A DNA stretch of 24,368 nucleotides, taken from IMG/VR virus record IMGVR_UViG_2690316002_000018; one strand, given 5' to 3'. Each line of letters opens with the position of its first letter. Position 1 is the first letter of the stretch. This document shows positions 3,887 through 5,824 of the stretch, one piece after another. A model generated the notes under the pieces. The model was given only the letters and a program-made list of their open reading frames with translations. It did not search any database and had not been told where the DNA came from. The translations under genes and the position numbers were made by a program. Source of the stretch: a virus (lineage: Duplodnaviria; Heunggongvirae; Uroviricota; Caudoviricetes).

Positions 3887-5824
3887 TTACGGGTTATTCA
3901 CTTCCACTGTTATACTTTCAATCAGCACCGGATATGTCGCACCGCTAGTGATATCGGTCACGCGCAATTTGTCTGCCGTAAACGTGCCGACCGGTGACTG
4001 TGACAGCATGAACGGCGTCCCGTCCTTACCATCAATGACCGGCGTCACCTCAATACTGTTGTTACCGGCAAAACGGAAGCCCAGCGTATGCCATTCGTTA
4101 TCAAATGCGCCGAATGACCCCAGCTTCGTGTTCTGACCAGCATTTCCCTTGTGGTACATCACATTAAGGTCTGTGGCATCGCTCTGTACGTAAAACGACG
4201 CCAGCAGGTTATGACCGGCATTACCTTCCAGTGTGACGCCCTGAGGCAGTGAAGAAACCGGCCAGTACAGCGCCAGTGCGTACTGATTAGCTGTCAGTGT
4301 GCCATCAACTTTAAAACGACAACTGATAAGCCCGCCCTTCTCCAGCAGGTCTGCGCCATTACCGACATCATGCTGCATAAACCACGAGGAACTTCCTGTC
4401 TGTTTGGTCCACCTCAGCGCCTTACCTCCTGCAGCACCTGCATCATCAACTACCAATGCACGCCCTCCTTCAGCTCCCCATCCCTGCGGATTCAGTAAAC
4501 CACCTGACTCTGTTGCACGGTAATAAAGCAGCGTTGTCACTGATTTCCCGTCCGTTGACGGTGTTGATGGTGTGTCCGGTGACGGCTTCTCATCCGGCGG
4601 CATCACAACCTGTTCCCCACCCACCAGTTCAGCCGTCCGTCCTGCATGGAGAAGAATCGCTGAGGCAAGACGGTCAGAAATAATCCCCCTGCGTGCCCAT
4701 GAGCTGAAATGGCTCGCACGGTCTGCTGACGTCCAGTTTGCCGACGTCCGGGAGGCCGCACCGTAATATCCTGATGCCGGAATATCCGGGTCTTCTTCCG
4801 GTTTGTTCGTCGGGACATTTGCTCCGTTCTCATCGGTCATGAACGGCACAAAGTGAATATTCTTTTCCGTTTTGTTTTTGTAACTGCCGTACACCGTCTG
4901 GTAAGTGGATTCGCTCTTCTGCTTCCAGAAATAAGTTGTGTCTCCACATATCCAGGGAACACCGTCAGCAGAACCACCAGCGCACTGTCCCACCATATCT
5001 GCAAGGTCCGTACGATATTGTTCCACTACTTCTGTAAAACGGGCTGTGTGATTTGCTGGCGTTCCGTCAAAGTCAAATTCCCCCTGCATCCACACCACGG
5101 CAAGCAGCACATTTTTCGGGTTCTTTGCCAGCGCGGCTTTTGTACGACCGATGAGATCCTTATACAGCGGCCTGCCCACACCCCAGCGGGTAGAACTCTC
5201 TGAGGCACCGGTCACGTCACTGTATGTTCCATCTGCCCCGGTGGTGAAAGCTGAACCACCACGGCAGCACGGAACCAGAAGAATACCCGCATTCGCCGGT
5301 ATAAACGGCAGCAGCTTTTTGGCAATATGCAGCCCCTGCCCCACGGTTCCGTACTGACCTTTCGACAGGTCAGCTTTCGGATGGTTAAGACGGCTCATGT
5401 CCTGTACATCATGCAGACAGTGGTCTGCCGGAATAATGTCGTTATATTTACAGGGAGCGCCATCCGGCGTCACTGTGCTGCGACGAGCCAGTTGCTTTAT
5501 ACGCGGGTCAGGACGGTCATATGTCTGCGGCAGAGGAAGCCCCTCACCGTAAGCCATGCCGTTCGACTGCCCGGCCAGTGGAATAACGTAGTAATAATCT
5601 GGCTCCGTGGTGACCACTCCCGGATAGCCACCATCCCCCGTGCCGGGCACAACCACTGGCGTGGTCACATCCCCCTCCGCGGCAATCGCCTGCATCAGGG
5701 TATAAGGGGTTATGGCCACAGGACTACCAAACGGCTGCCAGCCCTCTTTCAGTTTGTGTGTCAGCTTTTCCGCAAGATCTGACGGCGACGCCGCCCTGAC
5801 AACATCATAATGTTTAATCGACAT
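3887..5824 (-). CDS. nanS-p: Prophage sialate O-acetylesterase (NanS-p-like), 645 aa
   Basis: 645-aa ORF with GGGAGA RBS; N-terminal MSIKHYDVVRAASPSDLAEKLTHKLKEGWQPFGSPV and size and position typical of the large esterase downstream of stx in Stx phages (recalled, not searched). Confidence 0.75.
   Translation of the reverse strand: MSIKHYDVVRAASPSDLAEKLTHKLKEGWQPFGSPVAITPYTLMQAIAAEGDVTTPVVVPGTGDGGYPGVVTTEPDYYYVIPLAGQSNGMAYGEGLPLPQTYDRPDPRIKQLARRSTVTPDGAPCKYNDIIPADHCLHDVQDMSRLNHPKADLSKGQYGTVGQGLHIAKKLLPFIPANAGILLVPCCRGGSAFTTGADGTYSDVTGASESSTRWGVGRPLYKDLIGRTKAALAKNPKNVLLAVVWMQGEFDFDGTPANHTARFTEVVEQYRTDLADMVGQCAGGSADGVPWICGDTTYFWKQKSESTYQTVYGSYKNKTEKNIHFVPFMTDENGANVPTNKPEEDPDIPASGYYGAASRTSANWTSADRASHFSSWARRGIISDRLASAILLHAGRTAELVGGEQVVMPPDEKPSPDTPSTPSTDGKSVTTLLYYRATESGGLLNPQGWGAEGGRALVVDDAGAAGGKALRWTKQTGSSSWFMQHDVGNGADLLEKGGLISCRFKVDGTLTANQYALALYWPVSSLPQGVTLEGNAGHNLLASFYVQSDATDLNVMYHKGNAGQNTKLGSFGAFDNEWHTLGFRFAGNNSIEVTPVIDGKDGTPFMLSQSPVGTFTADKLRVTDITSGATYPVLIESITVEVNNP

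Follow-up and report, generated by a model that had tools for sequence, protein, structure and literature searches.

What does it mean to find a large esterase gene, of the kind that lies downstream of stx in Stx phages, in the late region of a prophage that has no stx? The question is raised by a 24,368-nucleotide stretch of a caudoviricete genome (IMG/VR record IMGVR_UViG_2690316002_000018; hereafter, the window), which also contains int, exo/bet, cI, cII, O, P, and nin genes. A preliminary description of this DNA held that the 645-aa esterase gene, two small downstream ORFs, and S21-type lysis genes reproduce the Stx-phage architecture, with an unrelated membrane-protein gene in the stx slot, and proposed that, following module exchange at the Q-S junction, the prophage could be a non-toxigenic relative or precursor of Stx phages. 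Our analysis gives a simpler answer: with high confidence, the gene is an ordinary, intact prophage nanS-p that belongs to the late operon of a stx-less, lambda-like E. coli prophage, with an esterase predicted to be co-expressed with the lysis proteins after induction and to act on O-acetylated sialic acids.

An intact NanS-p esterase

The nanS-p gene occupies exactly positions 3887..5824 of the minus strand, an intact reading frame with an ATG start that encodes a 645-aa sialate O-acetylesterase. Three domains were delineated in the product, namely, DUF1737 (residues 4-50; PF08410, E 3e-15), a SASA/NanS catalytic domain (residues ~73-391), and a DUF6645 lectin-like domain of the jelly-roll type (residues ~429-644). 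The Pfam matches within the latter two are shorter (PF03629, residues 83-275, E 5e-11, and PF20350, residues 494-611, E 7e-71, respectively); in a search of solved structures, residues 73-391 match NanS (PDB 3pt5, E 2.5e-119), and residues 429-644 match the C-terminal domain of a protein designated 'NanS-p' (PDB 6yp6, E 3e-96). The entire protein is covered by phrog_143 (E 0). The same arrangement, with DUF1737 and a lectin-like domain on either side of the catalytic domain, has been described for NanS-p (PMC10462455). The chromosomal NanS of E. coli (YjhS) is homologous to the catalytic domain over ~320 residues, but its solved chain (3pt5) is a single domain of 337 residues, lacking the DUF1737 and lectin-like domains. 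Searches of NCBIfam and PADLOC yielded no match for the esterase, the neighboring membrane proteins, or the DUF1378 and DUF826 proteins encoded downstream.

In the alignment with 3pt5, Gln86, Ser87, and His372 of the window protein correspond to Gln18, Ser19, and His301 of NanS, so that the Ser/His dyad and the Gln are all retained; in NanS, Ser19 and His301 are catalytic, and Gln18 is the oxyanion residue (PMC9063846). The preliminary description had anticipated a Ser-His-Asp catalytic region; the Ser and His are indeed conserved, but there is no catalytic Asp, NanS catalysis being carried out by a Ser-His dyad that does without one (PMC9063846). The GQSN motif with the Ser, the SHFSS motif with the His, and the oxyanion Gln are present in all six aligned prophage esterases. 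The closest known systems include NanS-p of phage 933W (L0105/z1466) and its counterpart in phi24B (vb_24B_21/gp84), which resemble the window protein in length (645 aa) and in three-domain architecture. The alignment with L0105 shows 72.8% identity over the full length, with the GQSN Ser and the SHFSS His shared. The assignment of the gene to the NanS-p type is borne out by these comparisons: its product combines a SASA/SGNH type II domain, the Ser, His, and Gln residues, and the three-domain layout, and the gene lies in the late region between Q and S.

One could suspect that this gene is a decaying remnant without function, given that the adjoining 247-codon membrane-protein gene carries a nonsense mutation and that nanS-p is wholly deleted in a sister prophage of strain E2348/69. 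However, the ORF is full-length, every catalytic residue is intact, and the protein shows 100% identity to WP_000023172.1 as well as to copies encoded in many other genomes. We therefore reject pseudogene status for the esterase and regard loss of its function as scarcely credible.

A mosaic late region

All the features of the late region described here are encoded on the minus strand. Upstream of nanS-p, the lambda-type late antiterminator Q (7364..7987, 207 aa; PF03589, E 1e-57 in Pfam) is 98.1% identical to lambda Q, and a blastp search with this protein produced no match to Q of 933W, BP-4795, or 434. At the nucleotide level, positions 7997-7289 are 95.6% identical to lambda positions 43875-44584, and the similarity stops just downstream of a pR'-like late promoter (7293..7321, TTGACT-17 nt-GAAACT) that was delineated by alignment with lambda pR'. 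The -10 hexamer differs from that of lambda pR' in two positions; by analogy with lambda, this element would act as the late promoter. Folding of the leader downstream of it revealed no convincing tR' hairpin (z -0.66).

The membrane-protein gene that was previously placed in the stx slot is there, but it is not a single gene: the interval between pR' and nanS-p holds a TfpB-like and a TciB-like gene in place of stx. The first of these, of 247 codons (6368..7126; matches to PF27470 'TfpB' on the record, and phrog_1521), is interrupted by an amber codon at 6881-6883 (codon 77, TGG to TAG). Only two bases distinguish it from the intact copy in E2348/69, one of these changes creating the stop; the 247-aa proteins of phage 434 and E2348/69 are identical, and the amber codon is the sole difference between the phage 434 protein and the window frame. 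The gene is intact in four related loci (L009, L010, L016, and L017), and another (L014) shares the lesion. Its product had no match in NCBIfam, PADLOC, or a copy of Pfam without the TfpB model. The second gene (6124..6282) encodes a DUF3927/TciB-like small membrane protein of 52 aa (PF13064, E 3e-14 in Pfam) that matches phrog_1470, annotated as 'TciB-like inhibition of cell division or resistance to colicin', and is 100% identical to TciB of phage 434. A literature search on TfpB, TciB, and DUF3927 retrieved unrelated papers only. Between this gene pair and the esterase, ~95 nt upstream of nanS-p, lies a strong intrinsic terminator (5919..5937; terminator scan and folding) with an 8-bp stem, including seven G-C pairs, followed by U8; by coordinate mapping, it corresponds to a terminator that the phage 434 annotation places immediately before the esterase gene. 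A scan between the terminator and the nanS-p start codon detected no promoter-like site.

Downstream of the esterase, both small ORFs of the preliminary description proved to be real genes. The first encodes a DUF1378 small membrane protein (3557..3739, 60 aa; PF07125, E 6e-40 in Pfam) that is 68% identical to ORF44 of BP-4795 and to an unannotated frame of 933W. The second encodes a DUF826 protein (3250..3519, 89 aa; PF05696, E 1e-34 in Pfam), 69% identical to the C-terminal part of 933W L0106; the listed 141-aa ORF with a GTG start is over-extended, the RefSeq call in EDL933 being 270 bp. The S21-type lysis genes were likewise found: a class II (P21 S-type) pinholin (2959..3174, 71 aa; PF04971, E 1e-32 in Pfam), 93-98.5% identical to S of 933W, BP-4795, and 434; a 434-type endolysin (lysozyme; 2462..2959, 165 aa; PF00959, E 4e-45 in Pfam), with 95.8% identity to the phage 434 protein annotated as SAR endolysin but only ~34% to R of 933W; and an Rz i-spanin (1998..2477; PF03245, E 4e-29 in Pfam), 63% identical to lambda Rz, with an embedded Rz1 (2039-2245) assigned on the basis of its position and the Rz1 call in related loci. 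The lysis cassette is followed by a gene for a Rha-family regulator (1275..1835; PF09669, E 4e-28 in Pfam). Rfam models gave no match at the gathering threshold anywhere in the window.

Judging by these comparisons, the Q-S interval is a recombination mosaic composed of lambda Q and pR', a membrane-gene pair of the 434/E2348-69 type, an esterase block of the type found in an O157 non-Stx prophage, and a SAR endolysin of the 434 type. The previously suggested exchange of modules at the Q-S junction is real, and its junctions are mapped, but it is textbook lambdoid mosaicism.

Relationship to Stx phages and distribution

The prophage segment contains no stx gene, in agreement with the preliminary description: the best hit in a tblastn search of the window with Stx2A/B had an E-value of 1.6. 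ARAGORN detected no tRNA genes in the window, in contrast to 933W, where ileZ, argN, and argO precede stx. Thus, the window has neither stxAB between Q/pR' and nanS-p nor the upstream tRNA genes that characterize Stx-converting phages. As in 933W, nanS-p is located upstream of the DUF1378, DUF826, and S21-type holin genes; unlike 933W, the window encodes a lambda-type Q and a different endolysin, and whereas 933W and phi24B have Sepvirinae podovirus heads, the phage that hosts the window esterase has lambda-like head genes.

Two observations speak for viewing the prophage as a non-toxigenic element, either ancestral or closely related to Stx phages, in which other genes occupy the stx slot. 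The order of nanS-p, DUF1378, DUF826, and S21 holin is indeed that of the genes that follow stx in 933W and BP-4795 (67-69% identity for the DUF1378 and DUF826 proteins), and the interval between pR' and nanS-p clearly accepts varied cargo, namely, stx, TerB/DUF3927, or TfpB/TciB. However, Q is 98% identical to that of lambda and does not match Q of Stx phages, and the endolysin is only ~34% identical to those of Stx phages. As for NanS-p, no Stx-phage copy among 351 phage records exceeds 76% identity to it, whereas copies from non-Stx prophages reach 99.8-100%. We therefore consider such a relationship most improbable; the prophage carries no mark of an Stx-phage precursor, its Q being that of lambda and its nanS-p allele not of the Stx-phage type. 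Recent transfer of the esterase gene from an Stx phage is likewise rejected, on account of the same 76% ceiling on protein identity to the Stx-phage copies.

The same allele and the same layout are found in other prophages, contrary to the implication that the locus is unusual. A non-Stx lambdoid prophage of EDL933 (O157:H7) carries effectively the same allele (WP_000023170.1, NZ_CP008957 1642848-1644785, annotated as 'SASA family carbohydrate esterase'), which differs by V487A only (99.9% nucleotide identity); identity is ~100% at the nucleotide level over window positions 3100-5900, including DUF1378 and DUF826. The flanks differ: the EDL933 copy is preceded by a 273-aa Q, a TerB-like pseudogene, and a DUF3927 gene other than that of the window, and the endolysin and head module that follow it are likewise of other types. 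The classical, non-Stx phage 434 (esterase UMO75335.1) shares with the window the succession of Q, 247-aa membrane protein, TciB, terminator, esterase, class II pinholin, and SAR endolysin, and its TciB, holin, and endolysin are 96-100% identical to those of the window. In contrast, phage 434 encodes another esterase allele (616 aa, 57.8% identical, with a divergent C-terminal domain) and another type of Q, and it lacks DUF1378 and DUF826. Because this layout is common to phage 434 and thousands of prophage copies, it does not single out the window prophage.

Several other assemblies contain an identical prophage segment, and the window protein belongs, together with the EDL933 variant, to a cluster of 610 members in which the name '9-O-acetyl-N-acetylneuraminic acid deacetylase' occurs. 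Public contigs encoding these two proteins number 163 and at least 1000, counts given without pairing, so that each protein is found in at least 163. Among 5426 complete E. coli genomes, at least 1777 carry prophage-type esterase genes, compared with 602 for stx2 and 349 for stx1; NanS-p without stx is the majority state. The presence and activity of nanS-p in non-Stx prophages have been stated in reviews (PMC10462455, PMC8065619), and a NanS-p gene in a stx-less lambdoid prophage is thus a common arrangement that existing annotations and the literature already cover.

Expression and possible roles of the esterase

Drawing on published work on close homologs and on the lambda-type Q/pR' and upstream terminator, we propose the following scenario for the window gene. 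The terminator that precedes nanS-p would hold transcription down in the lysogen; upon induction, Q-modified RNA polymerase starting from pR' would pass the terminator, such that the esterase would be made alongside the lysis proteins. For stx2a-linked alleles, mitomycin C has been shown to raise nanS-p expression by 1-2.4 logs (PMC10462455). Inspection by eye showed no hydrophobic signal-peptide-like stretch at the N-terminus of the window protein, and for this reason, NanS-p is probably released at lysis. Among the prophage nanS-p alleles from EDL933 and O104:H4, those assayed, from Stx and non-Stx prophages alike, encode active esterases and confer a growth advantage on Neu5,9Ac2 (PMC8065619, PMC10462455). 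By homology, the released window enzyme would be expected to strip O-acetyl groups from Neu5,9Ac2 and O-acetylated mucin sialoglycans, and the de-O-acetylated sialic acid could become usable by the surviving E. coli population.

Alternatively, the esterase might serve the phage itself. It has been hypothesized (PMC8065619) that such enzymes de-O-acetylate bacterial O-antigen or capsule for adsorption or release, in the manner of tailspike esterases, and the SASA part of the window protein shows a weak, local match to phrog_25867 ('tail protein', E 3e-5). According to the same review, experimental evidence of this activity is absent (PMC8065619); moreover, the gene is located in the Q-S interval rather than among tail genes, and its catalytic domain very closely resembles NanS, a sialate-specific enzyme (E 2.5e-119), so this role appears improbable. 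A better case can be made for a virion component. The phi24B homolog gp84 has been described as a proteolytically processed, DUF1737-anchored capsid-decoration protein, found in virions, with cryo-EM density for DUF1737 on the central hexons (preprint, bioRxiv 10.64898/2026.04.10.717836); because gp84 decorates the phi24B capsid, acting as a released 'metabolic' enzyme may be only part of what NanS-p does, or may not be its main role. NanS-p could then be mainly a structural protein, with DUF1737 docking hexamers on capsid hexons and the esterase and lectin domains acting on mucus or bacterial surface glycans, which would be compatible with the enzymatic activity. The window protein has the DUF1737 domain (E 3e-15) and retains a Tyr aligned with the anchor Tyr42. 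However, phi24B is a T=9 podovirus, whereas the window prophage has lambda-type head genes (Nu1, GpA, gpW, portal), as seen in the identical loci L009 and L010; relative to 933W, the loop surrounding the anchor Tyr lacks three residues; and both linker 'SSP' motifs singled out in the preprint are replaced (SISSP by DVTTP, and PSSPS by PSTPS). In addition, alleles 0-1 aa apart adjoin another set of head and terminase genes in EDL933 (small and large terminase, HNH endonuclease, major capsid protein). Given that near-identical alleles lie beside different head-gene sets, DUF1737 does not track one capsid type. On balance, a mainly structural role seems unlikely, and it is more doubtful still that DUF1737 of this allele, common to non-Stx prophages with lambda-like and other head sets, docks the esterase on lambda-like capsids. 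Should that be the case, ordinary siphoviral lambdoid phages, in addition to the T=9 podovirus phi24B, would carry NanS-p on their virions as a decoration that modifies sialoglycans, and the 'metabolic moron' view would become secondary.

Under the favored interpretation of the gene as an ordinary prophage nanS-p, its significance beyond correct annotation is slight. The spread of NanS-p among non-Stx lambdoid prophages, often with many copies per genome, is established, and the window adds one more mapped case of lambdoid mosaicism in the Q-S interval, where the segment between pR' and nanS-p behaves as interchangeable cargo: stx in some phages, TerB/DUF3927 or TfpB/TciB in others. NanS-p esterases let E. 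coli use O-acetylated mucin sialic acids and are, accordingly, of interest for the colonization of the gut by EHEC.

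Identity of the esterase

The nanS-p gene occupies positions 3887-5824 (- strand), exactly the coordinates assigned to it in the preliminary description, and encodes a protein of 645 amino acids (aa) from an ATG start. Pfam searches identified the DUF1737 (residues 4-50), SASA (residues 83-275), and DUF6645 (residues 494-611) domains. Residues 73-391 match the solved structure of Escherichia coli NanS (3pt5; E 2.5e-119), and residues 429-644 match 6yp6 (E 3e-96), the crystal structure of a C-terminal lectin-like domain deposited as 'NanS-p'. Direct alignment with the prototype, L0105 of phage 933W, yielded 72.8% identity from end to end, which bears out the assignment to NanS-p-type esterases. 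The Ser-His-Asp triad anticipated for this enzyme is, however, not the right expectation because NanS has no catalytic Asp: it relies on a dyad of Ser19 and His301, and Gln18 belongs to the oxyanion hole (PMC9063846). In the alignment with 3pt5, these residues correspond to Ser87 (in the motif GQSN), His372 (in SHFSS), and Gln86, all conserved in six of the six aligned prophage esterases. The gene is intact, and the catalytic residues are kept.

Organization of the prophage

The window spans one half of a lambdoid prophage, from early to late genes, with int (23295-24368), exo/bet-type recombination genes, and a cI-type S24 repressor on the + strand, and sieB, a cro-like HTH gene, cII, O, P, ninB, ybcO, rusA, ninH, and Q on the - strand. 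The superinfection-exclusion gene sieB (14907-15461, - strand) adjoins the immunity region. Among the early genes, two fairly long ORFs, of 322 aa and 204 aa (16442-17410 and 21105-21719, both + strand), had no Pfam match; no Rfam family and no tRNA gene were detected anywhere in the window. Runs of N at 481-847 (367 bases), 9485-9805 (321), and 18457-18497 (41) were placed, by comparison with a near-identical prophage segment (L009), in the Rha-to-terminase (Nu1) interval, the Dam methylase gene, and the bet/RecT gene; the low G+C content near these runs in the composition profile is an artefact.

The Q gene (7364-7987) is 98% identical to that of lambda, and identity to lambda DNA is 95.6% over a stretch that starts at the end of ninI and takes in pR', the similarity ending just past the promoter. 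It had been suggested that an unrelated membrane-protein gene fills the stx slot that follows. Indeed, stx was not found in the window (tblastn, best E 1.6) and a membrane protein is encoded there, but the slot holds two genes rather than one, namely, a membrane-protein gene of 247 codons (6368-7126, - strand; recorded hits to Pfam 'TfpB' (PF27470) and phrog_1521) and a DUF3927/TciB-like gene of 52 aa (6124-6282, - strand). The PHROGs label of this small membrane gene is 'TciB-like inhibition of cell division or resistance to colicin'. A TGG-to-TAG nonsense change in codon 77 (6881-6883) splits the longer gene into ORFs of 81 aa and 161 aa; the amber mutation is also present in another assembly (L014; GCA_001283345.2 CYEM01000013.1), and the gene is intact in E. 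coli E2348/69, phage 434, and four near-identical prophage copies. Just upstream of the pair is a promoter-like site (7131-7102, - strand; TTGTTA, 18 nt, TG-TATCAT). Directly behind the pair, with nanS-p beginning about 95 nt further on, is a strong intrinsic terminator (5937-5919, - strand; an 8-bp G+C-rich stem followed by U8), which coordinate mapping identifies as the counterpart of a terminator in the curated annotation of phage 434. The pair shows the promoter-genes-terminator layout of a 'moron' at the position held by stx in Stx phages and, judging from these flanking signals, probably behaves like one.

Downstream of nanS-p, the - strand encodes DUF1378 (3557-3739), DUF826 (3250-3519; the 141-aa ORF listed with a GTG start extends too far), a P21-S-type class II holin (2959-3174), an endolysin (2462-2959), Rz/Rz1 (1998-2477), and a Rha-family regulator. 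Homologs of DUF1378 and DUF826 with 67-69% identity lie directly 3' of nanS-p in both 933W and BP-4795; therefore, the order nanS-p, DUF1378, DUF826, S is the Stx-phage arrangement, as originally proposed. The endolysin shares 95.8% identity with that of phage 434 and about 34% with its 933W equivalent.

Module exchange and relation to Stx phages

Two parts of the window, 983-3208 (98.7% identity) and 5800-8000 (99.3%), match a prophage of enteropathogenic E. coli E2348/69, and from about 3100 to 5900 the sequence agrees at essentially 100% with that of a prophage in O157:H7 strain EDL933 that lacks stx. These segments overlap at two places, near the beginning of the holin gene and near the first nanS-p codons, which are the likely crossover zones. 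In the sister prophage of E2348/69 (NC_011601; 3510-3772 of the compared locus, L002), 263 bp replace the esterase block, such that nanS-p, DUF1378, and DUF826 are missing between flanks that are 99% identical. All that remains of the gene in this stretch is the initial ~25 nt of nanS-p and a segment of ~88 nt similar to the 3' terminus of a 434-type allele; by sequence comparison, this is a deletion scar, and deletion has removed nanS-p from that prophage. Exchange of modules at the Q-S junction, as previously surmised, is thus real, with E2348/69-like, EDL933-like, lambda-like, and 434-like segments combined, and is textbook lambdoid phage behaviour, nothing new.

The suggestion that this prophage is a precursor of Stx phages fared less well: nothing singles it out, and its Q, endolysin, and nanS-p allele are all unlike the Stx-phage types. 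No similarity of its Q to the corresponding proteins of 933W and BP-4795 was detectable, and its NanS-p, identical to non-Stx copies, shows at most 76% identity to any Stx-phage copy among 351 phage records. The prophage is related to Stx phages only through modules common to all lambdoid phages.

Nor is the arrangement novel, as had been implied; it is already known, annotated, and very common. Phage 434, a non-Stx lambdoid phage of the 1950s, carries Q, the membrane protein, TciB, the terminator, a SASA esterase, a pinholin, and a SAR endolysin in the same order. At least the 25 complete genome records that match best contain the 2.7-kb esterase block with 99.9-100% identity; they include EDL933, where it resides in a prophage without stx. 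The prophage segment under study itself recurs with 99.9-100% identity in five other assemblies (L009, L010, L014, L016, L017). A 420-kb sequence labelled 'plasmid pDCE7-1' (L005; NZ_CP090612.1) contains a 100% identical nanS-p block inside a lambdoid prophage. The window protein and its EDL933 variant, present in 163 public contigs for one of the two and at least 1000 for the other, belong to a single 610-member cluster (90% identity), with source names including 'SASA family carbohydrate esterase' and '9-O-acetyl-N-acetylneuraminic acid deacetylase'. When 901 bp of catalytic-domain sequence served as the query against 5426 complete E. coli genomes, this query was at least 80% covered in 1777, at up to 17 places per genome; matches to chromosomal nanS ('sialate O-acetylesterase') were at most 59% covered among the few listed. 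Given that stx2 is found in 602 and stx1 in 349 of the same genomes, most nanS-p copies belong to non-Stx prophages, and many to stx-negative strains. Altogether, the NanS-p identification and the module-exchange idea are confirmed, and the novelty and precursor ideas are not supported.

Possible roles of NanS-p

The nanS-p gene lies downstream of the lambda Q/pR' unit, separated from it by the terminator-ended two-gene insert, and after induction would be read mainly by Q-modified polymerase, consistent with the induction of other nanS-p alleles by mitomycin C (PMC10462455). By eye, nothing at the N-terminus resembled a hydrophobic signal peptide, and lysis is therefore the probable route of release for the enzyme. 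Possibly, it also, or instead, decorates the capsid: a 2026 preprint describes gp84 of phi24B, a 933W-type NanS-p, as a processed capsid-decoration protein anchored via DUF1737 (bioRxiv 10.64898/2026.04.10.717836), and the window protein has both this domain and a Tyr aligned with the reported capsid anchor. However, within residues 33-65 and 392-428 this allele departs from NanS-p of 933W and phi24B: the loop around the Tyr is three residues shorter, and both linker 'SSP' motifs singled out in the preprint are replaced. Moreover, near-identical alleles accompany two head-gene sets, one with lambda-like Nu1/GpA/W/portal and the other with an HNH endonuclease, terminase, and major capsid protein.

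A growth advantage on Neu5,9Ac2 has been reported for esterases of phages without stx (PMC10462455, PMC8065619). Once freed by lysis, the enzyme encoded here would strip O-acetyl groups from Neu5,9Ac2 and mucin sialoglycans and so may feed sister cells (PMC8065619).
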